Shown here one piece after another: positions 2,010 to 55,319 of a stretch of 64,000 bases of DNA. This DNA comes from Alphaproteobacteria bacterium (GTDB taxonomy: Bacteria; Pseudomonadota; Alphaproteobacteria; Rs-D84; CACZYB01). Position 1 is the stretch's first letter, and each line of letters starts with the position of its first letter. The notes beneath the pieces were generated by a model. It saw only the letters and a program-made list of their open reading frames with translations, was not told the origin of the DNA and ran no database searches. A program made the position numbers and the translations under genes. The stretch lies in NCBI GenBank assembly GCA_016297965.1, contig JAEDDP010000003.1, forward strand, positions 15,789-79,788, given 5' to 3'.

Positions 2010-3686
2010 TTATGTATTTTCATCCCCAGTGTTATTTTTGTTTTTTCCAGAAAGTCTTTTTAAAAGATAGTCCAATTTTGACCCGCGGTCCTGTAATTTA
2101 GTTTCACCACTTTTCCGATAATCCTTAACCTCACGAATAACGGATTTTGTAAGGGATAGTGTTGAAAGTCCCATACTTTTTAATGGTTGAACGAGTGAGG
2201 ATTCGGAAACACTTGCCCCAAACCATCCGGCAAATTTACCGGATTGCATCATTATTGCACCGTCAAGACCAATCGCAATAATCACATATACAAAATACCA
2301 TGTTGTTCCGACAAGTCGGTTAAATTCCTCAATATTGCCGGCCTTTAATAAACCAATTAAGGTTTGTGGTGTTGTTATGTTTGTTCCGGATGCGGAAAAC
2401 ATACCGCCCAAAATCCAATCATTGACTTCGGCACACATAACCATCGCAATACAGGTAAAGATAAGACGAAGGGCAAATGAAAATGTGTTTGAAATGGATA
2501 CTGTCGCATATCGTCGTGTCGTTTCAAAAATATAACAAACGGCAAGCACCGGCATTAAAATAATCGCCACACCAAGGAACAACATATATTCAACAATGAT
2601 AAATGAGAAAAACATATTTATGAAAAACAAACCAATAACCAAACATACACCGGCAAGTCCCATACGTACATCCTCGCTTGCGAAAATATTGGCAATAACG
2701 GCCATCGTTGCGGGAATACTGTTGTTATCCTGTAAAACCTCACCAGCCTTATTTATACGACGTGTCTTTTTTCCACCGGATTTAATATCACTTAATTCAT
2801 CAGCCATCCGATCTTCAACATCCCTTAACCGTTTACGAATCTTTTTTTCCTGCTCCTTTGAGGTGGAATTTGAAAGCATATCATTTAACTTGTCCCGCTT
2901 TTTACCCATTTTTTTAAACCACTTTTTGGAACCAAAATTTTTTGCAAATGAACCACCAATAAAAAATGCACCACGAATAACAATATATTCAATGGCAGTT
3001 GCAATCATTGGTTTAAGCCCATATTCAAACATTGATATTCCCAAATCCATATAATCATAACGAAGGACATTAACCTCCCGCATTAGGCAAACCATATTAT
3101 TTTTTGTATTTTCAGAAAGGACGTGCCCTTCCTTATAAATAAGAGTGGTTGGCATATTTTGACACGACGATGGTATTTTATCCTTTTGAATTATTTTTTT
3201 ACGGATAAATTCACGACCAACGCCACTTCCAAAATCAAGTGTAATTTCAAATGTGTTTGCAAAAATGTTTCGTGGATTATTAACAATAAAAAGTCCAACA
3301 ACAGCAACGGTCAAAAAAATCTTTTTATAAATATCCTTTATGTAATCAGCATTAAATTTTGGTGCATCAGGGTAAAGCATTGTATCAAGTGTTGGTTGAA
3401 ATGCCAAATATGTTTTATATACAACCCATAGGGCAAGACAGACAGATAAAACCTTAAATATTTCAGATTGAAAATATTCAAATGTTTGAAACGATATTAT
3501 TGAGAATACATCATACATACTTTCAAAAACAGAACAGGTCCAACAATCCTTTAATAACGGATACATCTTTGTTGTCAAAACGAATAAGGCAATGGTTACT
3601 AAAATGGTAAATATCCATTTTATCCAAGAGGCGACCTTGCCAATGGATGAAAATAAATCAAATCCGCTTGATTGATTAGATGCCAA
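2010..3686 (-). CDS. Polytopic inner-membrane protein (558 aa), tentatively VirB6/TrbL-like T4SS component.
   Basis: ORF track. Several TM helices at the N-terminus, a central basic coiled-coil segment (KKMGKKRDKLNDML...RKRLRDVEDRMADEL), a second TM cluster, and a hydrophilic basic C-terminus. This architecture and the tandem arrangement with the downstream membrane gene resemble rickettsial rvhB6 paralog arrays. No conserved motif could be verified by eye. Confidence 0.45.
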   Translation of the reverse strand: MASNQSSGFDLFSSIGKVASWIKWIFTILVTIALFVLTTKMYPLLKDCWTCSVFESMYDVFSIISFQTFEYFQSEIFKVLSVCLALWVVYKTYLAFQPTLDTMLYPDAPKFNADYIKDIYKKIFLTVAVVGLFIVNNPRNIFANTFEITLDFGSGVGREFIRKKIIQKDKIPSSCQNMPTTLIYKEGHVLSENTKNNMVCLMREVNVLRYDYMDLGISMFEYGLKPMIATAIEYIVIRGAFFIGGSFAKNFGSKKWFKKMGKKRDKLNDMLSNSTSKEQEKKIRKRLRDVEDRMADELSDIKSGGKKTRRINKAGEVLQDNNSIPATMAVIANIFASEDVRMGLAGVCLVIGLFFINMFFSFIIVEYMLFLGVAIILMPVLAVCYIFETTRRYATVSISNTFSFALRLIFTCIAMVMCAEVNDWILGGMFSASGTNITTPQTLIGLLKAGNIEEFNRLVGTTWYFVYVIIAIGLDGAIMMQSGKFAGWFGASVSESSLVQPLKSMGLSTLSLTKSVIREVKDYRKSGETKLQDRGSKLDYLLKRLSGKNKNNTGDENT

Positions 3687-3690
3687 TTAT

Positions 3691-3954
3691 TTACTTCCTT
3701 TTTTCCGTAAGTTTTTGATGTAATTCAATCAAATATTTTGCAAATTTTGACGACATAAATTTACGAAAATAATAATCAATTTTATCTTGAAGTTCCCGGT
3801 TCTGGCTGTTCGCCTTTATATACAAAATTCCAAGGCAAAAAATAATCACAGACCAGGATATGAAAAGTATTAAATATTTAAGTTTTGCAATAAGGACAAT
3901 TCCAAATAAAATGCCAATCATTGACAATAACAACTTTAAATTTCCAGAAAACAT
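3691..3954 (-). CDS. Small two-TM membrane protein (87 aa), co-operonic with the VirB6-like genes.
   Basis: ORF track. Two hydrophobic helices, then a basic C-terminal tail. Only a 4-nt gap to the downstream gene. Confidence 0.4.
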   Translation of the reverse strand: MFSGNLKLLLSMIGILFGIVLIAKLKYLILFISWSVIIFCLGILYIKANSQNRELQDKIDYYFRKFMSSKFAKYLIELHQKLTEKRK

Positions 3955-4030: not shown

Positions 4031-5296
4031 GTGGAAAATAATATAAAATCTGATACTTATGACAAAAAAAATCCCTTTGAGTCAAAAGAGGCACAAAAAC
4101 TTGCTTCTTTGGCAATAATTGATAAGGTTCGTTATGCCATAAAAAATTTAACAAAAGAAAAAGCAGTTGAAGAAATTCAAAAACTTCGTGATACGGATAA
4201 GGCACGATATTTTACGGGTGCTTTTGACCTTGCCGATGATTTTTTGAATGGAAAAATTCCGGAAAATGGTCGCGATGGTTTCAATTCAAAATTACAAAAA
4301 ATTGAAGATGATACTTTGGATATGATTGACAACCTTTCGGATAGTATTATTGAGGAAGGAATAAAAAAACAGACAAAACAAGAAATTGTTGATGAAATTA
4401 TGAATGAAAATCCGGATGCAAATAGGGATGAGGTGGAGGCAACCGTAAACGAGGCAATAGAGGATGAAAACGAGGCCTTTATTGATGAAAAACAAACCTT
4501 GTCCGATGAACCGTTTAAGCTTTCCCGACCAAAGGTTGATAAGATTAAAAAGATTTATACCTATAAAGTTGAAGGAAAGATTAAATCGGGTATACCAGAC
4601 CTTGATAATTTTTTGGCGATAATACAACCCGCAATAAATCAGGTGATTATTCAACCATGGAAGCTTATTTATGGAACCGTGGATGCAAAAAATTATGCAT
4701 TTGAAAAATTTGAAAACTGGCAATCAAAAATAAACAACCTTAAAACCGCCTGGGGGACACTTGAAAAACTTGGGGCAATTCCAAAGGATAAAAAGTTTAA
4801 ATATTTCGGCGATATAAATAAAAAGGAAGATGAGATTGCGGGATATTTCAATGCGTATGCAACCGACATTATGAATGACAAGTTTGTTGATAGTGAGGAA
4901 TTGGCAGAAAAAGGTCCACGAAAGAAATTGTTTGATTATACCCGTGAACCCTTACCCGCAAGAAAGACAATTGATGACATCCTTTTGAACCTTATTAAAA
5001 ATAATTGTCGTGGCGAAGATGGAAAGATTAGCGAAGGCGGGGCAAAACTCCTTAAAGGATTCAGTATTATGGTTGACCTTTTTAATAAGGAAGACAAGGA
5101 CAAAATTCCATCCGATTTTACATGTGATGTTGGCTATATTATGCAGGAAGCAAAGGGACGGACATCATACACAGATCAAAAAATTGAAGATGTGGATGTT
5201 GTTGGTATGATTGATGCAAGGGATAAAAAGGCAAAGGATGATGACTACCTTAAAAACTTGGCTGAGGCATTAGGACAGTTAAATGGAGGTAAGTAA
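4031..5296 (+). CDS. Hypothetical acidic protein (421 aa), first gene of a 5-gene operon. Carries the N-terminal motif DDFLNGKIPEN (aa 69-79), shared with the 6377..6943 product.
   Basis: ORF track (GTG start). Highly charged, with no TM segment or signal peptide. No family recognised. Confidence 0.5.
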   Translation: MENNIKSDTYDKKNPFESKEAQKLASLAIIDKVRYAIKNLTKEKAVEEIQKLRDTDKARYFTGAFDLADDFLNGKIPENGRDGFNSKLQKIEDDTLDMIDNLSDSIIEEGIKKQTKQEIVDEIMNENPDANRDEVEATVNEAIEDENEAFIDEKQTLSDEPFKLSRPKVDKIKKIYTYKVEGKIKSGIPDLDNFLAIIQPAINQVIIQPWKLIYGTVDAKNYAFEKFENWQSKINNLKTAWGTLEKLGAIPKDKKFKYFGDINKKEDEIAGYFNAYATDIMNDKFVDSEELAEKGPRKKLFDYTREPLPARKTIDDILLNLIKNNCRGEDGKISEGGAKLLKGFSIMVDLFNKEDKDKIPSDFTCDVGYIMQEAKGRTSYTDQKIEDVDVVGMIDARDKKAKDDDYLKNLAEALGQLNGGK

Positions 5297-5299
5297 TTT

Positions 5300-6364
5300 A
5301 TGAAAAAAATATTGTATTTGCTTCTTATAACCGGATTTCTGATTGCACCAATTGGATATTGGCTTATCACATGGTGGGGGGTTGATTTCAGTCATTTTCC
5401 ATCGTTTGCAAGGTTCAAATACATTTATTCACAGGACAGATTTTTAAGTATTGCCACATCAATAAATTCAGTGTTGTACTTGTTTGCAATCTATAAAATT
5501 ATTTTTTCAAATCCAGCACCAAAACAAAAAAAAGATGTGGTGAATGAAAAAAATGTTGTCGTAAATAAAAATACAAATGACAACATTACAAAGTGGGACA
5601 ACCTTTATGGTCCAAACAGGGTTGTAAATGCCACATCACCTACCGCAACAGAAAGAAATGATGCTATTCCTACTCCTACACCTTCACAAAATAGTAGGGA
5701 ACAGCAAAAAGTTGTTGAACGGGTTGAGGTAGAGGTTGAACCACCACAGGCAGGGACAAAGGTGGAGAAAAGTAATATAATCAATATGACAGAACCAGTG
5801 TCGGCAATGGAAGTTTACCAAAATCAAATCAATAATATTTTGGAAAATAACGGATATGCGGGGATGGGTGCGTGTGTTATAAATAACATTGATGTTGATT
5901 TTATCGCCGTGGCGGAAAGTGATACTTTGGTTGTCGGAATAATAAATACTGAATACGGTGATATCATTGCAAATGAAACGCCAAGTTCGGATGGTGAAGT
6001 TCCATCATGGTTTACGAATGAACGGAAATATCCATCGCCAGTTTGGGAGATAAAGACCGTTCAAAAGGCTGTTAATAAAATGATAAATGAGGTACTTCCT
6101 CCGGACAATGGAATCGTGGTGAAACCTGTTGTTGTAATACCAAATGCGAATGTTGCCAACCAATTGGATATGGAGGCGAAATGGAATGAGATTGGGGTTT
6201 CCGTTACACGATTTTTAAATCATTCTGAGCTTCCAAACCTTATTGATGTGTTGCCAGATAAAAAGGGAACCGAGGTATTGGAAAGTTATAAAACTTTTGT
6301 AAAAACACTGATTAAATATTTTTCACAAAAGAATAGAAAGTATCCAATGAAAAAGGCCGGATAG
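5300..6364 (+). CDS. Membrane-anchored protein (2 N-terminal TM helices, Pro/Thr-rich linker) with a C-terminal NERD-like / PD-(D/E)xK-like nuclease-related domain.
   Basis: GGAGG RBS; the start lies 4 nt after the upstream stop. The C-terminal segment GMGACVINNIDVDFIAVAESDTLVVGIINTEYGDIIANE...W resembles the NERD core (DhL.v...gvfvIEvKnysG.i...W). The E/K positions look substituted. Confidence 0.45.
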   Translation: MKKILYLLLITGFLIAPIGYWLITWWGVDFSHFPSFARFKYIYSQDRFLSIATSINSVLYLFAIYKIIFSNPAPKQKKDVVNEKNVVVNKNTNDNITKWDNLYGPNRVVNATSPTATERNDAIPTPTPSQNSREQQKVVERVEVEVEPPQAGTKVEKSNIINMTEPVSAMEVYQNQINNILENNGYAGMGACVINNIDVDFIAVAESDTLVVGIINTEYGDIIANETPSSDGEVPSWFTNERKYPSPVWEIKTVQKAVNKMINEVLPPDNGIVVKPVVVIPNANVANQLDMEAKWNEIGVSVTRFLNHSELPNLIDVLPDKKGTEVLESYKTFVKTLIKYFSQKNRKYPMKKAG

Positions 6365-6376
6365 GAGGTAGATTAA

Positions 6377-6943
6377 ATGTTGTTTAGTGAGGAATATTAC
6401 AAGGACTTAATCGCTAAACTTGGGCTTCCGGAAATGCCTATATCAAAGGTGATTTATAAGGGGAAAAATCTTCTTAACCCACAAACATTTCGGGATGATT
6501 TTTTAAAAATTTCAAAAAAGCTTATGCAATTTGTTTCATACAACAATATCGGACAACTTATAGAGGCAGGAATACCAATTGAAACCATTGATGAACTTCA
6601 CAATGGAATTATTCCCGAAAATATTTCTATATATATAAAAAAGCCAATTGAATATGGGGGAAAGTTGGAATTTTCAAATATGTTTTTGATTAGGACACGA
6701 CCATTTAAAAACATACTTGATACCTTTATGGATGAACAAATTTTAACATTTAACCGCGAACATCCCGGATATGACCGGAACAATGGCTTTATTTTACCAA
6801 CCGAACTTTATATTCCCAATCCGGAGGGGTTAATCTTTCTTCCGGCGTTAAAGGGATTTGCCGGTGCCGGTGGAAATACAACCACCGATAAAATGTCCGA
6901 AATTGGCAGTACTATGTTTTTAAAAAATGATGGAAGGTTTTAA
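6377..6943 (+). CDS. Putative toxin-like protein (188 aa). Shares a positionally conserved N-terminal motif (DELHNGIIPEN, aa 72-82) with the 4031 product. Possible HH-dyad (LHH/AHH-like) nuclease relic; unverified.
   Basis: AGGAGG RBS. It sits immediately upstream of a SUKH-type immunity gene, with a 3-nt gap. No signal peptide. Confidence 0.45.
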   Translation: MLFSEEYYKDLIAKLGLPEMPISKVIYKGKNLLNPQTFRDDFLKISKKLMQFVSYNNIGQLIEAGIPIETIDELHNGIIPENISIYIKKPIEYGGKLEFSNMFLIRTRPFKNILDTFMDEQILTFNREHPGYDRNNGFILPTELYIPNPEGLIFLPALKGFAGAGGNTTTDKMSEIGSTMFLKNDGRF

Positions 6944-6945
6944 TT

Positions 6946-7389
6946 ATGTTGTATGAAAAAGTAAAAAAATTAAAATCTTTGGTGAAAAATTCGGTAGTTT
7001 TTGATGGAGCAAAACCGGCAAAATTGGACTTTACCAATGCGGTGCTTACAAATTCAAAAAATGCGACACTTCCGCCAGAATACATTGAATTTTTGAAAAT
7101 AACAAATGGAATGATTATTCCTCCGTATGAATTTTATGGAAGTGAAGTTATTGACCGAAAAGATTATAATTATAAATACCCAAGTATTATGGAAATAAAC
7201 AAAACATTTGTGCAAAATAAAAACCCATTGATTGAAAACAGGGTTGTTATTGGCAATGTATTTTTTGACACAATCATATATGATAAATTTGACAATAATT
7301 ATAAGATTGTAAACAGGATAAATTTTGAAATTATTAAAAGTTTTTCATCGTTTTCAAACTTATTGGATTATATAATTGAAAGTATGTAA
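6946..7389 (+). CDS. SUKH-1 / SMI1-KNR4 family immunity protein (147 aa).
   Basis: Motif ATLPPEYIEFLKITNGMIIPPYEFYG matches the SMI1/KNR4 signature (LP.dY..FL...NGg). Size ~140 aa. A C-terminal VIGNVFFDTIIYD segment resembles the family's conserved C-terminal block. Confidence 0.55.
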   Translation: MLYEKVKKLKSLVKNSVVFDGAKPAKLDFTNAVLTNSKNATLPPEYIEFLKITNGMIIPPYEFYGSEVIDRKDYNYKYPSIMEINKTFVQNKNPLIENRVVIGNVFFDTIIYDKFDNNYKIVNRINFEIIKSFSSFSNLLDYIIESM

Positions 7390-7399
7390 GGAATAAAAA

Positions 7400-7609
7400 A
7401 TGCTTGAAAAACATTCAATTACAATTATGGGACATCATACAAGTATTACCTTAGAGCCGGAATTTTGGCAGGAGTTAAAAAATATTGCCACAAGGGAAAA
7501 TAAATCCGTCGGCAAAATTATTTCCGAAATTGATGCACCGGATTTGAATGAAAACCTTTCAAGTAATATTCGTGTATTCGTTTTAAAAAAGGTTAAGGGA
7601 TTATTGTAA
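7400..7609 (+). CDS. Ribbon-helix-helix (RHH_4-type) small protein conserved in Alphaproteobacteria.
   Basis: HSITIMGHHTSITLEPEFWQELKNIA...NLSSNIRVFVL closely matches the alphaproteobacterial RHH family, which is often misannotated as aryl-sulfate sulfotransferase. Confidence 0.6.
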   Translation: MLEKHSITIMGHHTSITLEPEFWQELKNIATRENKSVGKIISEIDAPDLNENLSSNIRVFVLKKVKGLL

Positions 7610-10600
7610 AATTTCCTTTTTCTTCCTTAACAAATAAACAGGATTTATTTTTGATGTGATGGATGTTGTATCAACCTTTCCCGTCAAGTTATTCACAAAA
7701 CCCTTTAAATCATAACTGAACACTAAGTTATCCGGTGCAAGGTTTGATATATCAAAAATACTTTCTATATTAAGACTTTTTTGAATAAGGTTTCCCGACA
7801 ACATACCACTTATATTCATATTTGGAAGGGAAAGATTGAATGCGGAATCCTTTACATCCGCAGATGAAATTTCACCGTCCACAGAAAGTTTTGGAAATTC
7901 CATACTTCCACTTTTAAGGGAATTTTCAAGTGTATATATAACGTTGTTTGTCGTTATATTGGCAAGCTTTAATATATTCGCAAGTATTGTTGAATAATCA
8001 CTTATACCGGAAATTTTTCCATTTAATATATCAATGGAATAATTACCTGACAAATTTGATAAAAGCTGGTATGCATTCATTCCGTTTGTTTTAAACTTTA
8101 TATCCGCATTCAATGTGCCGGATACAAGGTTCAAAAGTTCGTTATTCATTATATCATTTGGAATTTGATAATTTGAGATTTTAACTGTTCCATCAAACAT
8201 ATTTGAATTTAAAACTTCGGAATTCAAATCAATTTCATAATTGTGTTTTTTAAGTTTAAATTTAAAACTTCCTGGATTGGTGGAATTTTTCAAATCAAAT
8301 ATTACATCCTTGTAATTATTGCCGTTATATTCAGAAATATTTTTTGCATTAAGGTATATGTTGTACGGAATATCACGAATGATTTTAAGAAGGAAATCAA
8401 CATATCCATCGGTGTCCTTTATCCTTTTTATAACATCCTTTATATTGAAATTTTGCGTGTTAAGGGCAACAGAAGTTTCAAAACCACTTCGGTCCTTTTT
8501 TCGTAAAATTTCGCCGGTAAATACATTATTTTTGATACGGAATTCCATATCCTTTATATTATACCCCTCTACCCTCGCCTTTAATGAAAATGGGATATTG
8601 TCGTAAAAATAATTTATCAAATTATCACTTATAAAGCCCCAAGAGAACAAAAATCCCTTTAATTCATTATGCGATAGTTCAATTGTGTACGAAGCGTCGG
8701 TGTCAAGCAATTTACCGTTAACCTTTATTTTTATATCGTTTAATTTCGCATCAACCTGAGATATTGGATTTGACGCACTTCCGTTTAAAAGTATGTCAAT
8801 TCGGTTTACACCATTGGCAATCATTGTTTCAATAAATTGATTTTTTATGAATGGTATTGATATACCCTTTAACGTAGAAGATGAAATGTTATAGGAAAAG
8901 TTTTTAAATTCCCCAGCGGAACTTAAAATATTAAACAACTCCCCTTTCATCGCACTTTGGTATCCCTGATGATTAAAGGTTAGATTTTTAAGGTTAAGGC
9001 TTCCGTCCAAATATGAAGTATTAAGTTTGAAATTGTCATAGTTTGAATTATTCATCCGCAACTTTTTTATCATAACATTCAAACTAAAACTGCTTGACCG
9101 GATAAGGGAAAGTTTTGAAATTATAAATGAAAGATCAATGTTTTCCTTTATCAACTTATCCAAATTAACAGAATCAGATTTGATATTTAGGACATAATCC
9201 GTTTTTCCGTTTTCGGTTTTGGATGTAAAATATCCGGAAATAAGGTTGCCCCCAACCTCGGCCGTCATATTCAAAATATTTATAAAGCTTTTTGACATAG
9301 TTATGTCGGCATTAAGTCGGTTAAACTGTAAATATGGAGTGAAAATATTTTTTATGTCCCGTGAAAGGTTGCTTGCAACACGAACATCAATTGTCAAATC
9401 ATCGTTTAGGACATTTAGGATTTTACCACTTATTTTAATTGGCTTTTTATTTATGGAATAGCCCAAATCAGAAATATTTATTCCATTGAATACGTCCCCG
9501 TAAAATATAGGCGAGGTATTTAGGCGGAAATCCGTAATCATACTTTTTGTTGCAACAATATTTTTTGCGGTAATGTTAAAGTTTGCATATTGGAACAATG
9601 ACAATAATTTTTGTGATTTAAGTAATACATTTACCGGATTATAGGCATCATTTGCCTTTATATCAATAAACTTTGCAACAGGGAAAGTTGAGAAATCAAT
9701 GGAAAAATTAACACCCGAACGGTCAATACCATTTTTGCCATCAGGTTGCATTGCAAATGGAATAACACCTTTAAACTTTCCAACGACTTCGGAACCTTCT
9801 ATACTTCCATTGTTTAACAATATTGAGTTAGGAGAATTTTGAATATTAAATTTCAACTTTACCGAATCATTGAAAAATTGGGTATTTGGAAGTTCAACCG
9901 ATTTTATAAACTTTTTTGTGAATTTCAAAAGGCTGTCCGTTGTTATGCCAACATTTCCGGAAATTGTTTTTTCGCCCTCCTTTACAATTATGGTAAAGTC
10001 ATTATCAAGTTTGCTTTTTCCGGTAATGTAGTTAAAGTTTGTAACCGCATTAAAATTGTCGCTGTCAATATAGGAAAATAAGAATGAAAGGTTATCAACT
10101 TCCCCATCTTCAAAATAAAAGGAACCATTACCCTTTACCTTTGAACCTTCAACGGTTTTAAAACGAACGTTAATGTTTGTGATAAACGAGTCCGCCAATA
10201 CGACACGACCATTTTTTATTGTTACCTCCTTAAAAATCTTTCCATTCAATAAGGTATCAAGGTTTTCGTATTGTGAATTTTTGTATACATTTTCATAAAA
10301 GGTTGCATCCATAACGGCAATTTTGTTAATTACGAAATTGTCACTGAAAAAATTAAGAAATCCGGTATTGATGAATATCTTTGATGCGTTAATAAAAGCA
10401 CCGGGACTTTTTTCATCCATAGAACTTATTTCAACATTTCGTAAAATAACGGATGGGCGAGGAAGAATAGCAAATGAGATATCCCCTTTAATTGATGCAC
10501 GAAAACCAAATGTGCTTTGGATTTTATTTTCAATATAGGATTTTTGATTATTCAAATTTATAAAGTTTGGTAAAACATATAATGCAAAAAAGAATGCAAA

Positions 10601-10642
10601 TACTGACAATATCAACTTATAGTGTTTTTTCAATGAATCCAT
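7601..10642 (-). CDS. AsmA-family large envelope protein (~1013 aa from the ATG at 10642).
   Basis: N-terminal TM anchor, then FGFRASIKGDISFAILPRPSVILRNVEISS, typical of the AsmA N-terminal region. Long beta-rich body. GAGGGG RBS before the ATG at 10642; the track's longer start at 10690 is less likely. Confidence 0.55.
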   Translation of the reverse strand: MDSLKKHYKLILSVFAFFFALYVLPNFINLNNQKSYIENKIQSTFGFRASIKGDISFAILPRPSVILRNVEISSMDEKSPGAFINASKIFINTGFLNFFSDNFVINKIAVMDATFYENVYKNSQYENLDTLLNGKIFKEVTIKNGRVVLADSFITNINVRFKTVEGSKVKGNGSFYFEDGEVDNLSFLFSYIDSDNFNAVTNFNYITGKSKLDNDFTIIVKEGEKTISGNVGITTDSLLKFTKKFIKSVELPNTQFFNDSVKLKFNIQNSPNSILLNNGSIEGSEVVGKFKGVIPFAMQPDGKNGIDRSGVNFSIDFSTFPVAKFIDIKANDAYNPVNVLLKSQKLLSLFQYANFNITAKNIVATKSMITDFRLNTSPIFYGDVFNGINISDLGYSINKKPIKISGKILNVLNDDLTIDVRVASNLSRDIKNIFTPYLQFNRLNADITMSKSFINILNMTAEVGGNLISGYFTSKTENGKTDYVLNIKSDSVNLDKLIKENIDLSFIISKLSLIRSSSFSLNVMIKKLRMNNSNYDNFKLNTSYLDGSLNLKNLTFNHQGYQSAMKGELFNILSSAGEFKNFSYNISSSTLKGISIPFIKNQFIETMIANGVNRIDILLNGSASNPISQVDAKLNDIKIKVNGKLLDTDASYTIELSHNELKGFLFSWGFISDNLINYFYDNIPFSLKARVEGYNIKDMEFRIKNNVFTGEILRKKDRSGFETSVALNTQNFNIKDVIKRIKDTDGYVDFLLKIIRDIPYNIYLNAKNISEYNGNNYKDVIFDLKNSTNPGSFKFKLKKHNYEIDLNSEVLNSNMFDGTVKISNYQIPNDIMNNELLNLVSGTLNADIKFKTNGMNAYQLLSNLSGNYSIDILNGKISGISDYSTILANILKLANITTNNVIYTLENSLKSGSMEFPKLSVDGEISSADVKDSAFNLSLPNMNISGMLSGNLIQKSLNIESIFDISNLAPDNLVFSYDLKGFVNNLTGKVDTTSITSKINPVYLLRKKKEILQ

Positions 10643-10764
10643 TTTTCCCCTCTTAAAATGCCAAAGTAAGGTATTTATTTCCTTTGACAATCCCCTGTTA
10701 TGTTCTATATTATATTTATACTTTTATTAAGACAAGAAAAAAATATATTAAAGAGATTTTTAAA

Positions 10765-12813
10765 ATGGGTAAAAATCCTATTCTTTCATCGTTGTATAAC
10801 AAGCTTCCGGCGGGAACTCCGGCTGGGTTTCAAATGGTATCACAATTTACCCCAAGTGGCGACCAGCCATCGGCAATAAAGGAGCTTGTAAAGGGAATAA
10901 ACGAAGGTAAAAAGGATCAGGTATTACTTGGTATTACCGGTTCGGGTAAAACATTTACAATGGCAAATGTTATTCAACAATGTCAACGTCCAACCCTTAT
11001 AATGGCACCTAACAAAATTTTGGCGGCACAACTTTATCAGGAAATGTTGGAATTGTTTCCGAATAACCACGTTGAATACTTTGTTTCATACTATGACTAT
11101 TATCAACCGGAAGCATATATTCCAAAAACCGACACCTATATTGAAAAGGACAGTGCAATAAACGAACAAATTGACCGACTTCGTCATTCGGCGACAAGAT
11201 CCCTTTTGGAATATCGTGATGTTATTATTGTGGCTTCGGTATCGTGTATTTATGGTTTGGGTTCACCGGAGGCATACTCCTCTATGAGTTTGACATTAGA
11301 GGAAGGTCAGACAATACCACTTGATGAAGTACTTAAAACACTTACCTCTATGCAATATGAACGAAACGATATTGCACTTGACCGTGGAACATTCCGACTT
11401 CGCGGGGATACATTGGAAGTTTTTCCAGTCCATTTGGAGGATAAGGCGTGGCGGTATTCTTTTTTTGGGGATGAAATTGAAACGATTGCCGAATTTGATA
11501 CCCTTACTGGGAAAAGGATGCTTTCACTTCGGTCAACAACAATATATCCGTCAAGCCATTATGTAACACCGGGACCTGCCCTTTCAAATGCAATTGTTGG
11601 AATAAAGGAAGAACTTCGCGAACGGTTGGAATATTTTACAAAAAATCACCAACTTCTTGAAGAACAGAGGTTAAGGGAAAAGACCAATTTTGATATAGAG
11701 ATGTTGGAAACCACCGGATATTGTAAAAGCATTGAAAATTATTCAAGGTATTTGACCGGAAGACCGGCCGGCGCGCCACCACCAACTTTGTTTGAATACC
11801 TTCCGGATGATGCGTTAGTGTTTATTGATGAATCGCACGTTTCCGTTCCTCAAATTGGTGGTATGTATAATGGGGACCGTGCAAGAAAGACTACACTTGC
11901 CCAATATGGGTTCCGTCTTCCATCGTGTCTTGACAACCGACCATTAAAGTTTGCCGAATGGAATGAATTTAGGGGGCAAACGATATATATTTCCGCAACG
12001 CCGGGTGATTGGGAGCTTGAACAAACAGGTGGAAAATTTACGGAACAGCTTATCCGACCAACAGGACTTTTGGATCCAGAAATTGAGGTTCGTCCATTGG
12101 AAAATCAGGTGGATGACCTTATGCATGAATGCCGAAAGGTTGCCGCATCCGGCGGACGGGTACTTTGTACGACACTGACAAAGAAAATGGCGGAACAGCT
12201 TACCGATTATTTATCCGAATATGGAATAAAGGTTCGCTATCTTCATTCAGATATTGACACATTAGAACGTGTGGAAATTATTCGCGATTTGCGTATGGGA
12301 AAATTTGATGTGTTGGTTGGAATAAACCTTCTTCGTGAAGGATTGGATATTCCGGAATGTAAGCTTGTTGCCATACTTGATGCGGACAAGGAAGGTTTCC
12401 TTCGTTCGGAACGTTCGCTTATCCAAACAATTGGACGTGCCGCCCGAAATGCCGAAGGTCGGGTAATACTTTATGCCGATAAAATAACCGGTTCAATGAA
12501 GTATGCAATTGATGAAACAAACAGACGTAGGGCAAAACAAATTGCATATAATACGGCACACAATATAACACCAACAACCGTATCAAAAAAGATTGCGTCA
12601 AATATTGCAGATATGGATTATGTTGATATACAGGAAAATCCAACCGCAAACAGGAAAAAGTTCAAATTTAAATCTCCGGATGATATTCAAAAGATCATCA
12701 AAAAGAAGGAAAAGGAGATGTTGGAACTTGCAAACAACCTTGAATTTGAAAAGGCAACAGAGATACGTGATGAAATTAAGGAGCTTAAAAAACTTTCTCT
12801 TGAATTAGAGTAA
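10765..12813 (+). CDS. uvrB: Excinuclease ABC subunit B.
   Basis: Strong UvrB homology throughout ([14 protein letters not shown] Walker A, helicase motifs, C-terminal UVR domain [17 protein letters not shown]). The true start is the ATG at 10765 (MGKNPILSS...); the track's 10684 start is an upstream extension. Confidence 0.9.
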
Positions 12814-47081: not shown

Positions 47082-47384
47082 ATGATAAAAAAATATAAAC
47101 ATCTTTTTTTTCCGATTTTAGTGGTTGTTGCTGTGCTTTCATCTGGGCTGGGCTTTTTCCTTCAATTTAAAATAAACAAATTTGACAGGGAGATTGCAAA
47201 CCTTCAATCCGAAATAAAAAAAACGGATGTTGAAATAAAGGTTTTGAAAACGGAAATTTCCCATCTTACATCAATTCAACGGGTGCGGGAAATTGCAAAT
47301 CGTTATCTTCCACAATACAAAAACATTACACAAAAAGATTTTATAAACCTTATGGATATTCCGGTTAACCCAGATTTTGAGTAG
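47082..47384 (+). CDS. ftsL: Cell division protein FtsL-like (TM + coiled coil).
   Basis: Single TM segment then a coiled coil. Positioned between rsmH and ftsI. Confidence 0.55.
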   Translation: MIKKYKHLFFPILVVVAVLSSGLGFFLQFKINKFDREIANLQSEIKKTDVEIKVLKTEISHLTSIQRVREIANRYLPQYKNITQKDFINLMDIPVNPDFE

Positions 47385-49071
47385 TTTTATGAAAAAGTTT
47401 TTTGATAAATTTTCCGATAATGAAGGCAATGAATTTTTTGAATTAAATTCATTCCGCGATGATATTCCGGTTGAACTTTTGTTAAAAAATAAAACGAAAA
47501 ATGAAACCGAACGCCGTATTATTATTATAAAAAAGTATCTTCTTCCTTTGTTGTTTATTCTTTTAACCATTACCCTTTTTTGGCGGGTTGATTTTTTCAG
47601 TGGTACAAACAAGGAAAAAACGGAAACCGTAAATAAATTTCATCGCCCAGATATTGTTGATAGGAACGGCGAAACAATTGCAACGAATCTTCCGACGTGG
47701 GATTTATATGTTGAACCATATAATGTTGTTGATGCCGAAAAATCAGCAAAGATGTTGGTTAAAGTTTTGCCATACTTAAAATACAATGACGTATTGCAAA
47801 AGATGAAATCACCACGAAAGTTTTTATACATCGTAAGGGATATAACCCCAGCGGAACAGAAAAAAATAATCCTTATCGGTGAACCGGGATTTGGTTTTGA
47901 ACAAAATGAAGGTCGTGTTCATACTCAGGGAAGTCTTTTCAGTCATATTATTGGCACCGTTGACATTGATAATAATGGTGTAAGTGGTATTGAAAAATAT
48001 ATTGATAGTAAAGGATTATCAAAGTCAACAAAACCAATACAACTTTCCGTTGATTTGTATATCCAAGATGCAATACATCAAAACCTTTCTTTTGCAATGA
48101 AAGAATATGGTGCAAAAAGTGCCGCCGGTATAGTAATGGATGTAAAAACAGGTGAAATTTTGGGTATGGTTTCACTTCCTGATTTCAAAATCAATGAATA
48201 TAAAAATACTGTACTGAATACACTTTATAACAACCACATTACGTACGATGTGTATGAAATGGGATCGGTGATGAAGATTTTTAATACTGCACTTGCCATT
48301 GAAAATAACTATCCGAACGACAAGTTTTTTAATGTATTAAAACCATTTAAAATTGGAAGTCATCCTGTAAAGGATTCCCATCCGAAAAAGGCCCTACTTA
48401 ATATGGCGGAAGGGTTTATTCATTCATCAAATATTGTAATGGCAAATATTGCACAGGATTTGGGAATTGAAAAACAAAAGGAATTTTTTGAAAAAATAAA
48501 AATGTTTAAAAAGGTAAATTTTGAACTTCCGGAACGGGGGGAACCTTTGCTTCCAAAAGTTTGGGATGAATTTACCAGTGCAAGTATAGGTTATGGTTAT
48601 TCCATTTCACCAACTATGCTTCATATAATATCCGCGGTAAATGGAATCATAAATGATGGTATGTATATAGAACCAACCATAATGAAAAAGGATACAAATT
48701 CAGTTTTGAAATCATATCAGGTTGTAAGTCAGAAAACATCAGAAGCGATGCGAAAACTTATGCGATTGGTGGTAACAGATGGTACGGGATATATGGCAAA
48801 GTTAAAAGACATCGCCGTTGGAGGAAAAACCGGAACATCGTATAAAAATAAAAATGGAAAATATGATAAAAATAAAATTCGGACATTTTTTATTTCCATA
48901 TTCCCAGTTGACAGTCCAAAGTACATAATGCTTGTTATGTTGGATGAGGCGGTAACAAAAACCGGATGCAACAGCTCGGCTTGTACGACTGTACCTGTAT
49001 CAACACAAATTATAAAGGAAATAGGTTCAATATTAAACCTTGACCTTACCCTTAAAATTAAAAAAAATTAA
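47377..49071 (+). CDS. ftsI: Peptidoglycan D,D-transpeptidase FtsI (PBP3).
   Basis: SxxK (GSVMK), SxN (HSSN) and KTGT motifs, with an N-terminal TM anchor. Confidence 0.8.
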   Translation: MSSFMKKFFDKFSDNEGNEFFELNSFRDDIPVELLLKNKTKNETERRIIIIKKYLLPLLFILLTITLFWRVDFFSGTNKEKTETVNKFHRPDIVDRNGETIATNLPTWDLYVEPYNVVDAEKSAKMLVKVLPYLKYNDVLQKMKSPRKFLYIVRDITPAEQKKIILIGEPGFGFEQNEGRVHTQGSLFSHIIGTVDIDNNGVSGIEKYIDSKGLSKSTKPIQLSVDLYIQDAIHQNLSFAMKEYGAKSAAGIVMDVKTGEILGMVSLPDFKINEYKNTVLNTLYNNHITYDVYEMGSVMKIFNTALAIENNYPNDKFFNVLKPFKIGSHPVKDSHPKKALLNMAEGFIHSSNIVMANIAQDLGIEKQKEFFEKIKMFKKVNFELPERGEPLLPKVWDEFTSASIGYGYSISPTMLHIISAVNGIINDGMYIEPTIMKKDTNSVLKSYQVVSQKTSEAMRKLMRLVVTDGTGYMAKLKDIAVGGKTGTSYKNKNGKYDKNKIRTFFISIFPVDSPKYIMLVMLDEAVTKTGCNSSACTTVPVSTQIIKEIGSILNLDLTLKIKKN

Positions 49072-49142
49072 AAAGTACTTAATTATAAAATATATTTGTG
49101 CTATAATATGTGTGATATTTATATAAATGAGGACTTTATAAA

Positions 49143-50216
49143 ATGTTTTACAGTTTAACTTCTAATTTGGATGGATTTTTTAATCTTTTTAGATATATCA
49201 CATTTAGGACCGGTGGGGCATTGCTTACATCACTTTTTATCTATCTTATTTTTGGTGGGAAATTTATTCATTTTGTTAAAAATAAATTCGCACAACCGAT
49301 AAGAAAGGAAGGTCCACAATCTCACCTTAAAAAACAGGGAACACCAACAATGGGTGGTGTATTGATGCTTATATCCATATTTGTTTCGGCAATGCTTTGG
49401 TGCAACCTTAATAATGGGTATGTGTGGATTGTATTGTTTACAATGTTTTCATTCGGACTTATTGGCTTTATTGATGATTATTTTAAGGTGGTTCATGGTA
49501 ATGCATACAGGGGACTTTCCGCAAAGTTAAGATTGCTTTTGCAATTTATAATAAGCGGACTTGTTTGTTATGGTATATACAAACTTATGCCAAATGAATT
49601 TAAGACAACTATCACTATGCCATTTTTGAAAAACATACTTTGGGATTTAGGAATAATTTATTTCGTGTTTGTGGCATTTGTAATTGTTGGAACCGCAAAT
49701 TCGGTAAATTTAACGGATGGTATTGATGGTCTTGCAAGTATGACAAGCATAACTTCGTTTATCGTTTTCTTGCTTGTTTCATATTTGATTGGACGTGCGG
49801 ATTATTCGCTTTATTTGTATCTTCCATACGTTCCAGGTGCCGGTGAAGTAACCGTGCTTATCGGTTCAATTATTGGTGCGATTTTGGGCTTTTTATGGTT
49901 TAATGCATATCCGGCAAAAATATTTATGGGAGATGTTGGTTCACTTGCCATTGGTGCCGGTTTGGGTGTAGTTAGTGTTATAACAAAAAATGAATTTTTA
50001 CTTCTTATTTGTGGGGCAATTTTTGTTGCCGAAGCTCTTTCGGTTATGATACAAATTGCATCGTTTAAAATAAGGGGAAAAAGATTTTTCAGGATGGCTC
50101 CGATACACCATCATTTTGAATTGGGTGGATGGAGCGAGCAAACCGTGGTAATGAGATTTTGGATTATATCTGTAATCCTTGCTTTGGTTGCCCTATCATC
50201 TCTTAAAATCAGATAG
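49143..50216 (+). CDS. mraY: Phospho-N-acetylmuramoyl-pentapeptide transferase.
   Basis: Polytopic protein with conserved NSVNLTDGIDGLA and MGDVGS motifs. Confidence 0.9.
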   Translation: MFYSLTSNLDGFFNLFRYITFRTGGALLTSLFIYLIFGGKFIHFVKNKFAQPIRKEGPQSHLKKQGTPTMGGVLMLISIFVSAMLWCNLNNGYVWIVLFTMFSFGLIGFIDDYFKVVHGNAYRGLSAKLRLLLQFIISGLVCYGIYKLMPNEFKTTITMPFLKNILWDLGIIYFVFVAFVIVGTANSVNLTDGIDGLASMTSITSFIVFLLVSYLIGRADYSLYLYLPYVPGAGEVTVLIGSIIGAILGFLWFNAYPAKIFMGDVGSLAIGAGLGVVSVITKNEFLLLICGAIFVAEALSVMIQIASFKIRGKRFFRMAPIHHHFELGGWSEQTVVMRFWIISVILALVALSSLKIR

Positions 50217-50230
50217 TAAAAGGAATAAAA

Positions 50231-51649
50231 ATGATAAATAATTTGCTTAATAAAACTGTGGCTATATTGGGCCTTGGTAAGACAGGTATGGCCGTTGCCA
50301 GAGAACTTAAATGTCGTGGCGTTCACGTTATTGGATGGGATGAAAAAGAAGAATTAAGGGCTGAGGCACAAAAACTTCAAGTTGTGGTTCAGGATTTACG
50401 TTTCGTTGACTTTTCAAAGGTGAAACTTTTGATAATAAGTCCGGGAATTCCGCATACCTACCCTGCTCCACATCCTGTGGCACAGCTTGCAAAGGACAAT
50501 GGTGTTCCAATAATTTCTGATATTGAATTATTTATTTCAACGTACAAGGATGCAAAATATATTGGTATTACCGGCACAAATGGAAAGTCAACAACGACCG
50601 CCCTCATATACCATATATTAAAGGAAAATGGTGTGCCATGTGCAATTGGTGGAAATTTTGGTATTCCAGTTTTTGATTTGCCAATACTTGGAAGTGATGG
50701 TTATTATGTCCTTGAAATGTCAAGTTATCAAATTGATATTACTCCATCGTTGGATTTTGATATTGCCGCACTTTTAAATATTACTCCGGACCATTTGTCC
50801 CGTCATAATGGAATGGATGGATATGTGGCGGTGAAAAAGCAAATCTTTACACGAAAGACAAAAAAGGATGTTGTGAATGTTGTTGCGGTTGATGACAACT
50901 ATACAAAGAAGATATTCAAGGAAATTTGTGAAGAACAAACAAAATCCAAAAATATTCCAGTATCATTTTCAAAAAAATTGGACGGTGGATATTATGTAAA
51001 TTCAAAGGGTGTTTTGATTGATAATACAAAGAATGAGAAAAAAGAAATTTTGGATTTATCGGAACTTCAAAACCTTCGTGGAAAACATAACTGGCAAAAT
51101 ATTGCCGTTGCATTTGCGGTGGCTAAAAAAACAGGACTTTCAACCGCAAAAATTATAGATGCGATAAAAAACTTTGCCACACTTGAACACAGGATTGAAA
51201 ATGTTGGTACATTTGCCGGTGTTCAATTTATTGATGATTCAAAGGCAACCAATGCCGAATCCGTAAAATATGCCATAGACTCAATGAAGGATATTTACTG
51301 GATTATTGGCGGACGACAAAAAGAAGGTGGTATTTCAATTTTGGAACCACAACTTGGGGATGGAAATATAAAGCGAGTATTCACAATTGGTGAATGTGAA
51401 AAGGACTTTTATAATACAACAAAAAAGGTTCTTCCATCATACAAATGTCATAAGCTTGAAAAGGCTGTGTTTAAGGCATTTAAGCTTGCCATAAAAGATT
51501 TAAAAAAGGGCAAGGTTGAAAAACCGGTTATACTTTTATCACCGGCGACTGCGTCATTTGACCAATATAAATCTTTTGAAGCAAGGGGCGACCATTTCAA
51601 ACAGCTTTATAAAGACATAGTTGCAAAGTATCAAAAAAAGTTTGGATAA
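50231..51649 (+). CDS. murD: UDP-N-acetylmuramoylalanine--D-glutamate ligase.
   Basis: GITGTNGKSTTT P-loop and HRIE motif; Mur ligase domains. Confidence 0.85.
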   Translation: MINNLLNKTVAILGLGKTGMAVARELKCRGVHVIGWDEKEELRAEAQKLQVVVQDLRFVDFSKVKLLIISPGIPHTYPAPHPVAQLAKDNGVPIISDIELFISTYKDAKYIGITGTNGKSTTTALIYHILKENGVPCAIGGNFGIPVFDLPILGSDGYYVLEMSSYQIDITPSLDFDIAALLNITPDHLSRHNGMDGYVAVKKQIFTRKTKKDVVNVVAVDDNYTKKIFKEICEEQTKSKNIPVSFSKKLDGGYYVNSKGVLIDNTKNEKKEILDLSELQNLRGKHNWQNIAVAFAVAKKTGLSTAKIIDAIKNFATLEHRIENVGTFAGVQFIDDSKATNAESVKYAIDSMKDIYWIIGGRQKEGGISILEPQLGDGNIKRVFTIGECEKDFYNTTKKVLPSYKCHKLEKAVFKAFKLAIKDLKKGKVEKPVILLSPATASFDQYKSFEARGDHFKQLYKDIVAKYQKKFG

Positions 51650-51654
51650 GCCAA

Positions 51655-52785
51655 ATGTTTATGAAACGAACCGACAATAATTTGCTTACAAAGTGGTGGC
51701 TTGGGGTAGATAAGGTTGTTTTATTTGCCGTACTTGGGTTTATAGTGTTCGGTGCATTGATGGTTTGTTCAACCGGACCGTATGCCGCGCAAAGGGCAAG
51801 ATTGGATGAGCTTTTTTATATAAAAAAAATGCTTGTATACATTCCGGTTGGTATCGTTTCATTGTTCGTATTATCGTTTATGAAAATAAAGTGGTTAAGG
51901 TATGGAGCATGGACTTTATTCCTTATCCTTCTTCCATCATTATTTGTGGCATTGGCATTTCCGGAAACCAAGGGGGCAAGGCGTTGGATTACACTTCCAG
52001 GGGTATTTAAAATTCAGCCGTCCGAATTTTTTAAGCCTATATTTGCCCTTGTCGTTGCGATGATACTTTCGCGAATAAAGGAACTTCACAACAGGGAAGT
52101 TCCGGTATGGCAAAATAAACGTGAACGGAACTATATTCTTTTGCTTCTTGGTATATTTGGTCTTGTTATACTCGCCCTATCCCTTCAAAAAGATTTGGGA
52201 ATGACACTTACGTATACAGTTATCTTTTTTGCCGAAGTTTTTGTTGCAGGACTTTCGTGGAAATGGATTTTGGTACTTTTTGGATTGGGTATTACGGGAC
52301 TTGCCTGTGCATTCAAATTTATGCCCCACGTTGTACGGCGACTTACGGCATTTCACGAAGGTTCGTACCAACTTGATATGAGCCTTAAAGCGATTGGCGA
52401 GTCGGGTATACTTTTTGGTGGGTCAGGAAACAACATAAAAAAGCTTATCCCCGATGTTCACACCGATTTTATTTTTGCGGGAATTGTTGAAAATTTTGGA
52501 CCAGTTATTGCCACACTTATAGTTGCATCATTTTTTAGCGTAATCCTACATATTTTGGGAGATGTGTATCAAAAAAATAATAAATTTATTGTATATAGTG
52601 TTGTTGGTATTGTGTCGTATTTGACATTCCAAATAACAATTAACCTTTCATCAACACTTGGAATAATTCCAACAAAGGGTATGACATTGCCGTTTATTTC
52701 CTATGGTGGGTCGTCCTTTGTTTCATCTTGCATTGCAATAGGAATTATTTTATCATTGCTTCAAGATCAAAATTTACGGAGATGA
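51655..52785 (+). CDS. ftsW: Peptidoglycan glycosyltransferase FtsW (SEDS family).
   Basis: Ten TM segments and SEDS conserved regions (PSEF.K, TDFIFA). Confidence 0.85.
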   Translation: MFMKRTDNNLLTKWWLGVDKVVLFAVLGFIVFGALMVCSTGPYAAQRARLDELFYIKKMLVYIPVGIVSLFVLSFMKIKWLRYGAWTLFLILLPSLFVALAFPETKGARRWITLPGVFKIQPSEFFKPIFALVVAMILSRIKELHNREVPVWQNKRERNYILLLLGIFGLVILALSLQKDLGMTLTYTVIFFAEVFVAGLSWKWILVLFGLGITGLACAFKFMPHVVRRLTAFHEGSYQLDMSLKAIGESGILFGGSGNNIKKLIPDVHTDFIFAGIVENFGPVIATLIVASFFSVILHILGDVYQKNNKFIVYSVVGIVSYLTFQITINLSSTLGIIPTKGMTLPFISYGGSSFVSSCIAIGIILSLLQDQNLRR

Positions 52786-52790
52786 TTATA

Positions 52791-53882
52791 ATGAAAAAAA
52801 ATAATAAAAGAATAGTGATTGCTGCTGGTGGAACCGGTGGACATCTGTTTCCCGCTTCATCAATAAAAACTGCCCTTGAAAAAAAGGGATATAAGGTATT
52901 TTTGATTACGGATAAAAGGGGCAAAAGATTTGCCAACAAATTTGAAAATATATCCGTTATTGTTGGTGGCGGTTGGAGTGGGGAAAGCTTCTTTTACCGT
53001 GCAAGAAGTCTTTGCAAACTTGCCGTTGGATTTATGCAAACACTTTTTTATATGTTTAAAATCCGTCCGGTTGCCGTGATTGGGATGGGTGGTTATATTT
53101 CGGTTCCGGTTGTGTTGTGGGGAAAGCTTCTTTTGAAAAAGACTTTCGTACATAATGCCGACTCTATACTTGGTAATGCAAATATATTGCTTTCCAAATT
53201 TGCGGATGTGACAATGGTTTCATTCAATGATACAAAGAAAATTCCGGCACGGGCAAATGTTGTATTTACCGGACTTCCACTTCGTCAGGATGTAAAGGAT
53301 GTTGCAAATACGCCGTACAATTCACCGGAAAAAAGTAGCAAGATTATTGTTGTTGTTATGGGGGGATCCCAGGGGGCAAAAATCTTTGGTGATGTTGTAT
53401 CAAGGGCATTTGCAATGTTTGATAGTAAGACAAAAAAGAAGTTATTTATATATCAACAGGTTGTTGAGGAAGATATAGGGGAAATTTCCGAATTTTACAA
53501 AAATGAAGGAATTGAGGCCGAAATAAAATCATTTTTCAATAACCCAGCGGAATTATTAGCATTGGCAAACATATTTATTGGGCGTGCAGGTGCATCTACC
53601 GTATTGGAAGTTGGAACGGTTGGAAGACCGTCAATTTTTATACCAATTATGCATAAGGACAGGCAACAATTCATAAATGCCGAACAAATAACAAATGTTG
53701 GTGGTGGGGAAATCTTACCACAACCAGAGTTTTCGGCAAAAAATTTATATAAAATCCTTGAAAAAATGATAAAAACGCCGAATTTACTTGAAAATATGGC
53801 AAAAAAAGCTAAAATTTTCAAAATTGATAATGACGCAAGCAAAAATATTGCCGATTTAGTGGACAATATCCTTTGCAAATAA
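52791..53882 (+). CDS. murG: UDP-GlcNAc--undecaprenyl-PP-MurNAc-pentapeptide GlcNAc transferase.
   Basis: IVIAAGGTGGHLFPA N-terminal motif and GT28 fold. Start at the ATG at 52791, just after the ftsW stop. Confidence 0.85.
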   Translation: MKKNNKRIVIAAGGTGGHLFPASSIKTALEKKGYKVFLITDKRGKRFANKFENISVIVGGGWSGESFFYRARSLCKLAVGFMQTLFYMFKIRPVAVIGMGGYISVPVVLWGKLLLKKTFVHNADSILGNANILLSKFADVTMVSFNDTKKIPARANVVFTGLPLRQDVKDVANTPYNSPEKSSKIIVVVMGGSQGAKIFGDVVSRAFAMFDSKTKKKLFIYQQVVEEDIGEISEFYKNEGIEAEIKSFFNNPAELLALANIFIGRAGASTVLEVGTVGRPSIFIPIMHKDRQQFINAEQITNVGGGEILPQPEFSAKNLYKILEKMIKTPNLLENMAKKAKIFKIDNDASKNIADLVDNILCK

Positions 53883-53894
53883 AGAAGGTGTGTA

Positions 53895-55301: not shown

Positions 55302-55319
55302 GTTATTGAAAGAACGACT

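Follow-up and report, generated by a model that had tools for sequence, protein, structure and literature searches.

A SUKH-paired, histidine-less relative of HNH toxins linked to type IV secretion genes in gut-associated Alphaproteobacteria

Gene Z and its SUKH partner

The DNA studied here, referred to as the window, is a stretch of 64,000 nucleotides from an Alphaproteobacteria bacterium (contig JAEDDP010000003.1, positions 15,789 to 79,788). The gene of interest is an open reading frame (ORF) at 6377-6943 on the forward strand. Its product of 188 amino acids (aa) is denoted Z, the two operon genes upstream of it are denoted X and Y, and a gene of the SUKH family follows it. A preliminary description of this DNA saw in Z a candidate toxin with a motif reminiscent of the LHH/AHH type, or possibly a novel toxin fold. 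Z appears instead to be a degenerate HNH domain. The features of Z and its partner are as follows.

6377..6943, forward strand: Z, an ATG...TAA ORF of 188 aa with GGAGG 8 nt upstream
6377..6454, forward strand: conserved N-terminal segment of Z, residues 1-26, including GLPEMPI; I12, G16, E19, M20, and P21 are invariant and the mean majority fraction is 0.80
6596..6604, forward strand: LHN (L74-H75-N76), part of the motif proposed in the preliminary description; neither a dyad nor conserved
6605..6721, forward strand: HNH-equivalent segment of Z with a probable beta-beta-alpha core, residues 77-115 (IYIKKPIEYGGKLEFSN); register taken from hmmalign of 178 relatives and from hhalign
6851..6940, forward strand: C-terminal tail of Z, residues 159-188 (GAGGNTTTDKMSEIGSTMFLKNDGRF); model confidence (pLDDT) below 50, predicted to be disordered
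6946..7389, forward strand: SUKH-1/YrhA-family protein of 147 aa, 2 nt past the Z stop codon

The preliminary description placed Z, as an ORF without a signal peptide, in the classic toxin position upstream of a SUKH gene, and this much holds. Z has neither a hydrophobic N-terminus nor a transmembrane (TM) segment. The SUKH protein of the window scores above curated cut-offs in both Pfam (PF09346 SMI1_KNR4, 29.9 bits against 25.4) and NCBIfam (NF038335 YrhA family, 63.5 against 55). Its orthologues, when scanned alone, are below threshold or undetected, yet they form one family with the window SUKH. A SUKH orthologue is found directly after Z in every locus that includes the right flank. An immunity-type gene immediately downstream, as expected of a polymorphic toxin-immunity system, is thus found in the Z-SUKH pair.

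The Z family comprises about 30 clusters, each of 181-207 aa and none annotated, whose members come from Alphaproteobacteria and 'Rickettsiales' metagenome-assembled genomes (MAGs). An alignment of 24 orthologues has no invariant histidine or cysteine anywhere. It has 22 invariant residues at pairwise identities of 46-82%. dN/dS against the closest genomes is 0.07-0.11, and these values are rough because dS is saturated. Z is the best-conserved gene of the operon X-Y-Z-SUKH-RHH_4. A scan of species-representative genomes found 14 Z loci in 14 gut-associated MAGs, one per genome. Searches of plasmids and phages gave zero matches, and with such matches absent a mobile-element origin of Z is rejected. 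The variable tips, cassettes, orphan immunity genes, patchy distribution, and rapid divergence that mark a polymorphic toxin-immunity system are not features of Z. Z behaves like a core gene that is fixed, present once per genome, and maintained by purifying selection, and not like a polymorphic toxin cassette.

The most conserved region of Z is its tail (mean majority fraction 0.84 over residues 159-181), followed by the N-terminal segment, the strand region 141-158 (0.75), and the former catalytic core at 77-115 (0.74). Invariant in the tail are G165, G166, N167, D171, M173, I176, G177, and T179. A hidden Markov model (HMM) of the tail matches Z orthologues only and no other ORF in the window or in the fetched loci, and the idea that the tail is a signal common to neighbouring proteins is rejected on this result. 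A reading of the tail as a double-glycine leader, or as resembling ribosomally synthesized and post-translationally modified peptides (RiPPs), was dropped because peptidase, ABC transporter, and modification genes are not found nearby.

In P0030 (125 aa, from a 1,020-bp ENA contig), an N-terminal fragment of Exo_endo_phos (PF03372) continues in frame into a Z orthologue, of which the final ~66 residues are present; a chimeric assembly or a local rearrangement is the probable cause.

Homology to HNH toxin tips and loss of the catalytic histidines

Scans of Z against Pfam, NCBIfam, and PADLOC at E<=1 return no family, and this includes all Tox-HNH-type models. Sequence searches of the PDB with Z alone and with the family profile give no match, and Foldseek finds nothing significant in the PDB for the Z model. 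A profile search run exhaustively over 1.84 billion representative proteins recovered 218 relatives of Z. Where these are distant, the match falls on the C-terminal tip of PT-HINT, Tox-PAAR-like, PT-TG, or RHS proteins, with marginal Pfam HNH matches. The core of the canonical relatives reads G.VP.GWQVHHK.P.D.GGTNDF.NLVLIKN.PYH, to which Z aligns as GIIPENISIYIKKPIEYGGKLEFSNMFLIRTRPFK. In other words, VHHK.P..GGTN...N.......PYH of the canonical proteins corresponds to IYIK.P.EYGG.....N.......PFK of Z at the same positions.

When the Z family is compared by hhalign with the histidine-bearing class alone, the probability is 99.5-99.6% over 133-134 columns (E = 5e-23 and 1.2e-23). The profile of the histidine-bearing class in turn reaches HNH nucleases in the PDB: Cas8f-HNH (3e-5), the HNH domain of a group II intron maturase (5e-4), pyocin AP41 (2e-3), and colicin E7 (0.06). 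Pfam HNH is matched by 15 of 16 members of this class (best 2.2e-5), and AHH by just one of 16 canonical relatives, at E = 0.18. In the AlphaFold2 model of Z (pLDDT 76.7), residues 83-87 and 102-106 form strands and residues 107-128 a helix after them, an order that fits beta-beta-alpha, and the model superposes on the DNase domain of colicin E7 (ColE7) with 2.8 A over 75 residues. The profile-profile comparisons, by way of the histidine-bearing tips, place Z in the superfamily of HNH/His-Me fingers and indicate that it is homologous to HNH-superfamily polymorphic-toxin tips. An identity of Z with Rehh/Tox-REHH was considered and rejected; the set of conserved residues is different, and neither Z nor its canonical relatives match any Pfam model so named.

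In the register given by these alignments, the HH dyad corresponds to Y86-I87 of Z, the helix histidine to K111, and the second helix His/Thr to D115. Of the catalytic-core features, Z retains only the GG and the Pro together with the structural Asn, N101. The 178 aligned relatives were scored at positions 86, 87, and 111, where x is any residue other than His; seven of them are fragments that do not span all three positions.

HH..H (canonical): 60 proteins, 22 of them of at least 300 aa
HH..x: 14 proteins
Hx..H (intermediate): 39 proteins
Hx..x: 6 proteins
xH..x: 1 protein
xx..x (the Z class): 51 proteins, with no His at any of the three positions

Across the Z family the replacing residues are Y, F, C, L, W, or M at 86, I, L, M, T, or F at 87, and K, R, or L at 111. 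Since the substituting residues vary, no substitute catalytic residue is evident. In ColE7, H544, H569, and H573 are the metal ligands and H545 is the general base. In this numbering, the intermediate class keeps the equivalents of H544, H569, and H573 but is without that of H545, and Z is without all four. The general-base His and the His/Asn/Asp metal ligands that define an HNH enzyme are not found in Z. Because the three motif histidines are all substituted, an active beta-beta-alpha-metal nuclease, and with it canonical HNH catalysis by Z, is very unlikely. In a different, deeply divergent HNH toxin, DNase activity and toxicity alike disappear when one metal-binding His is mutated (preprint 10.64898/2026.09.22.753552).

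The residues which the preliminary description cited as an HH-dyad-like motif are present in Z (D72-E-L-H75-N-G-I-I-P80-E-N...F-S-N101 and N126-R-E-H129). Among the 24 orthologues, the position of H75 is occupied by H, N, R, S, Y, A, K, E, or G, and that of H129 by H, Y, N, K, R, T, L, or a gap. The LHN...NREH motif is neither conserved nor catalytic, and by alignment to the histidine-bearing relatives the actual dyad position lies 11 residues downstream of the proposed one. Because the segment overlaps the HNH-equivalent core, the resemblance was real and the register was wrong. The toxin ancestry that was proposed stands. Membership in the LHH/AHH type does not: Z has no [LASG]-H-H dyad and matches none of the Pfam families Tox-LHH, AHH, SHH, and GHH at E<=1. 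The structural model, suggested as a check for a beta-beta-alpha-metal core, has the strand-strand-helix order and lacks the metal-binding and catalytic histidines. Note that a position next to SUKH together with a loose histidine motif does not make an active toxin; a check of the catalytic residues against relatives alters the annotation.

The SUKH gene is shared with the histidine-bearing relatives. The gene after that of the canonical relative P0103 (PT-HINT, Butyrivibrio) is SMI1_KNR4, with a product of 148 aa, which the HMM of the window SUKH family matches at 2e-09. The PAAR-like relative P0132 has DUF2169 upstream and a truncated SUKH after it. Members of the intermediate class have, downstream, a protein of 143-147 aa of the same SUKH subfamily (1e-37 to 1e-50). 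The SUKH pairing of Z is ancestral and retained. Toxin families with an HNH fold are published as having Imm-SUKH for their immunity partner (PMC3482391), and the domain homology and the shared partner together indicate that the ancestor of Z was an HNH toxin with a SUKH partner.

The tail has a different history. Canonical toxins have no tail and end 2-8 residues past the last strand. The intermediate class has it in a diverged form, GSGGK.K.DRSVYAGF...KSMPGR. This distribution indicates that the conserved tail was gained in the clade when the general base was lost.

Neighbouring genes and the link to type IV secretion

Around Z and SUKH the window contains the rest of the operon and a divergent cluster at 2010..3954.

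2010-3686, reverse strand: TrbL/VirB6-like protein, 558 aa (Pfam TrbL, 26.0 bits against a cut-off of 25.9)
3691-3954, reverse strand: membrane protein, 87 aa, in the divergent cluster
4031..5296, forward strand: X, 421 aa, acidic and soluble, the first operon gene; syntenic in the close family
5300..6364, forward strand: Y, 354 aa; a disordered linker joins two N-terminal TM helices to a C-terminal domain of the PD-(D/E)xK fold, whose canonical motif is degenerate
7400..7609, forward strand: RHH_4 ribbon-helix-helix protein, 69 aa, the last operon gene (Pfam PF13467, 1.7e-22); syntenic

In every close locus with enough flank, the VirB6-like gene and the 87-aa gene are on one strand and X, Y, Z, SUKH, and RHH_4 are on the other, and the order X-Y-Z-SUKH-RHH_4 persists where the right flank differs. 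The VirB6-like genes are divergent from the operon in all close loci. TrbL matches are also found on the orthologues of the 558-aa protein. In relatives the divergent cluster extends past the point that corresponds to the left edge of the window and contains two or three tandem VirB6/TrbL-like paralogues, as recognised by a family HMM in the left flanks of L001, L004, L005, and L016 (loci are numbered with L). Tandem VirB6 copies are a known hallmark of type IV secretion systems (T4SSs) of Rickettsiales (PMC2653234). None of virB3, virB4, and virB8-11 is seen in the flanks examined.

Another link to type IV secretion is found in the intermediate class (L027-L036 and L009). Its Z homologues keep one dyad histidine and both helix histidines, and have an N-terminal MWDWS.S start and an acidic extension. 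A gene for a VirD4/TraG-type coupling protein, with Pfam matches to T4SS-DNA_transf, TrwB_AAD_bind, and TraG-D_C, lies immediately upstream of the Z homologue in all 10 loci with a left flank. In those intermediate loci that reach far enough, a Y-family gene is found directly before virD4. With this recurrent adjacency to core T4SS genes in divergent genomes (L025 and L026 being the exceptions), the Z clade is genetically tied to T4SS genes.

The intermediate locus L034 (9090-15039) has uvrB directly after SUKH and uvrC two genes further downstream. In the window, uvrB (10684-12813) follows an AsmA-family gene. Since uvrB is downstream of Z-SUKH in both clades, a shared site is indicated, which suggests that the Z clade and the intermediate clade occupy an orthologous chromosomal position. 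The most divergent Z orthologue (28% identity, 165 aa) is in L026 (6096-7943, Ca. Enterousia sp.), which keeps the order Y-like, Z, SUKH-like and the tail motif GGNATTDRMTQIGMSM; its flanking ORFs look unrelated and were not scanned against Pfam. A conserved hypothetical protein of ~171 aa in a vir islet of Rickettsia was considered as a Z homologue and rejected, as it belongs to a virB1 operon, an unrelated context.

X, whose counterparts in relatives reach up to 921 aa, has no credible Pfam or PDB match, either as a single sequence or with 13 orthologues. Y has, with confidence, a restriction-endonuclease-like fold. The D...(D/E)xK signature is not found in it: D200 alone is conserved (23 of 24), and the positions after strand 209-215 are N/S/L/T, any residue, and E/K/R, with no conserved acidic-x-Lys. 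Together with Z, Y gives the operon two proteins of nuclease fold that lack a canonical site. At the other end of the operon, the 3' ends of the RHH_4 gene (7400-7609, forward) and the convergent AsmA-family gene (7601-10690, reverse) overlap by 9 nt. Elsewhere in the window, 47377-56231 on the forward strand holds seven co-directional ORFs of 564, 357, 472, 376, 384, 468, and 303 aa. Judged by ORF sizes and order alone, this run resembles a cell-wall/division (dcw) cluster.

Proposed role of Z and comparison with known systems

Every catalytic histidine of Z is lost, yet Z is conserved, fixed, and linked to a secretion system. It is therefore, most likely, a toxin that has been put to another use rather than a weapon. 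We lean, with moderate confidence, towards reading Z and SUKH as a disarmed HNH/SUKH toxin-immunity pair that now serves, without catalysis, as a binding module with a link to type IV secretion. Under this proposal Z would no longer cut DNA and would act by binding. Z and SUKH would form a stable complex through the old toxin-immunity interface, and the termini of Z, chiefly the disordered tail (GGN.T.D[KR]M.E.G...GR), would dock the pair onto VirD4, the VirB6-like channel proteins, and/or Y. Z itself may be a translocated non-enzymatic substrate, or an adaptor or regulator.

Several points weigh against this proposal. The TrbL/VirB6 match barely exceeds the Pfam cut-off (by 0.1 bits), and virD4 is not found in the 64-kb window. 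T4SS neighbours are absent from L025, which keeps Z and SUKH only, and from L026, which keeps Y, Z, and SUKH only. Invariant polar residues of Z (E92, which is nearly invariant, Y93, Q121, and D171) could form a new active site. Also, we infer the binding role of Z from its conservation and its gene neighbourhood.

In the main rival, Z would still be an effector that a T4SS delivers and that is toxic in a non-canonical way, and SUKH would be its true immunity protein. In every locus SUKH is kept right after Z, and purifying selection acts on it; the sister class is always directly after virD4, whose product, the coupling protein, recognises T4SS substrates. The tail is conserved and C-terminal, and bacteria-killing T4SSs with effector-immunity pairs recognised via C-terminal domains are known (PMC6536674, PMC8740702). 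However, Z is present in one copy per genome without arrays of orphan immunity genes, and no conserved set of residues like a known active site is found in it. Moreover, the tail motif is on no protein other than Z in the window or the fetched loci and is therefore not a signal shared among effectors there. We regard a toxic effector as rather unlikely.

A less probable explanation is that Z, Y, and RHH_4 make up a DNA-handling complex that has nothing to do with secretion and serves, e.g., repair, uptake, or defence; inherited synteny alone would then account for uvrB and the T4SS-like neighbours. One operon does encode two nuclease-fold proteins (Z and Y) and a ribbon-helix-helix DNA-binding protein, uvrB is nearby in both clades, and L025 and L026 keep the pair or the trio without T4SS genes. 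But Z and Y are both without canonical catalytic residues, and PADLOC defence families are unmatched. Besides, the linkage, to VirD4 in 10/10 loci and to VirB6-like genes in all close loci, is seen again and again in two clades whose neighbours are otherwise different. We regard this explanation as improbable.

The active LHH/AHH nuclease toxin of the preliminary description is very improbable. Z does precede SUKH as a toxin would, it is truly homologous to HNH toxin tips, and the canonical relatives pair with SUKH. Against it, Z matches no Tox-HNH-type Pfam model, H75 and H129 are not conserved, and Y/F/C, I/L/M, and K/R stand where the true motif has its three histidines, without an invariant substitute. 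Loss of one metal-binding His is enough to inactivate a related toxin, and Z differs from polymorphic toxin tips in its single copy, its synteny, and its slow evolution. That Z is a non-functional relic, as the loss of all catalytic residues might suggest, is effectively refuted by dN/dS of ~0.1, 22 invariant residues at the identities given above, ORFs that stay intact and keep a constant length throughout the ~30 clusters and the 14 species genomes, and the gain of a new conserved tail.

The disarmed binding module can be put in a more specific and tentative form, which we hold to be rather unlikely as it stands. The toxin-immunity pair may have been domesticated stepwise within bacteria, first losing the general base, then the metal ligands, and gaining a docking tail, to become a dedicated non-enzymatic component or cargo of a T4SS, e.g., a coupling-protein adaptor or gatekeeper acting with the membrane-anchored pseudo-PD-(D/E)xK protein Y. 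A three-step series is visible in the sequences (HH..H, then H-..H, then histidine-less), with the tail gained along the way, and in these uncultured gut Alphaproteobacteria the pair has a tight link to virD4 and VirB6-like genes. If this form is correct, it would be, to our knowledge, the first toxin-immunity interface in bacteria to be taken over as a structural part of a secretion system. HNH/SUKH pairs are textbook interbacterial weapons, and the Z lineage keeps the pair and discards the chemistry. If confirmed, this would offer a tractable bacterial example of a toxin-immunity interface repurposed after disarmament, and it would suggest that the T4SSs of a poorly known gut clade have accessory parts or substrates as yet unrecognised. 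In the literature, no description was found of a bacterial histidine-less HNH/SUKH pair linked to VirD4 or VirB6. HNH/SUKH pairs as such are well known, and so is the reuse of an inactive HNH toxin domain, in the GHH domain of teneurin (PMC3482391).

The closest known systems are the HNH/EndoVII-fold toxin tips with Imm-SUKH (PMC3113570; PMC3482391). They have a homologous domain and the same order, a toxin-type gene and then SUKH. While the relatives of Z among them are fused to PT-HINT, RHS, PAAR-like, or PT-TG delivery modules, Z is a standalone protein. Z also differs in lacking the catalytic and metal-binding histidines, in being single-copy, syntenic, and slowly evolving, and in its extra conserved N-terminal segment and C-terminal tail, and it matches none of the Pfam families Tox-LHH, AHH, SHH, GHH, and WHH. 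The DNases of colicins E7 and E9 and of pyocins have the same core order, HH-x-x-P...GG...N...H, and are reached by the profile of the canonical relatives of Z. Their immunity partner is an Im-type four-helix protein, whereas that of Z is SUKH.

An inactivated HNH toxin domain reused for signalling is found in the C-terminal GHH domain of teneurin/Odd Oz (PMC3482391). As in Z, an HNH-fold domain of polymorphic toxins has lost its catalytic residues and has been kept, for a non-nuclease role that is also proposed for Z. Teneurin is eukaryotic and extracellular, with an RHS/YD shell and no immunity partner, while Z is bacterial, keeps SUKH, and is linked to a T4SS.

Two comparisons concern the T4SS. 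The X-Tfe/X-Tfi pairs of Xanthomonas and Stenotrophomonas (PMC6536674, PMC8740702) resemble Z-SUKH in combining a small effector-type gene with an immunity-type gene and in their link to virD4. X-Tfes also have a conserved C-terminal region, and that of Z could likewise serve for recognition. X-Tfes have active toxic domains and an XVIPCD of ~120 residues, while Z has no active site and a tail of ~30 residues unlike anything recognised, and it is tied to T4SSs by gene neighbourhood.

The rvh (Rickettsiales vir homolog) T4SS islets (Gillespie et al. 2009, PMC2653234) have tandem VirB6-like paralogues and virD4 at a separate chromosomal site, as in the Rickettsiales-like Alphaproteobacteria of the Z clade. 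virB3, virB4, and virB8-11 are not seen next to the genes studied here. In Rickettsia, virD4 is followed by gppA, and a module of the HNH/SUKH type is not described for the rvh islets (PMC2653234); in the intermediate class it is the Z homologue and SUKH that follow virD4.

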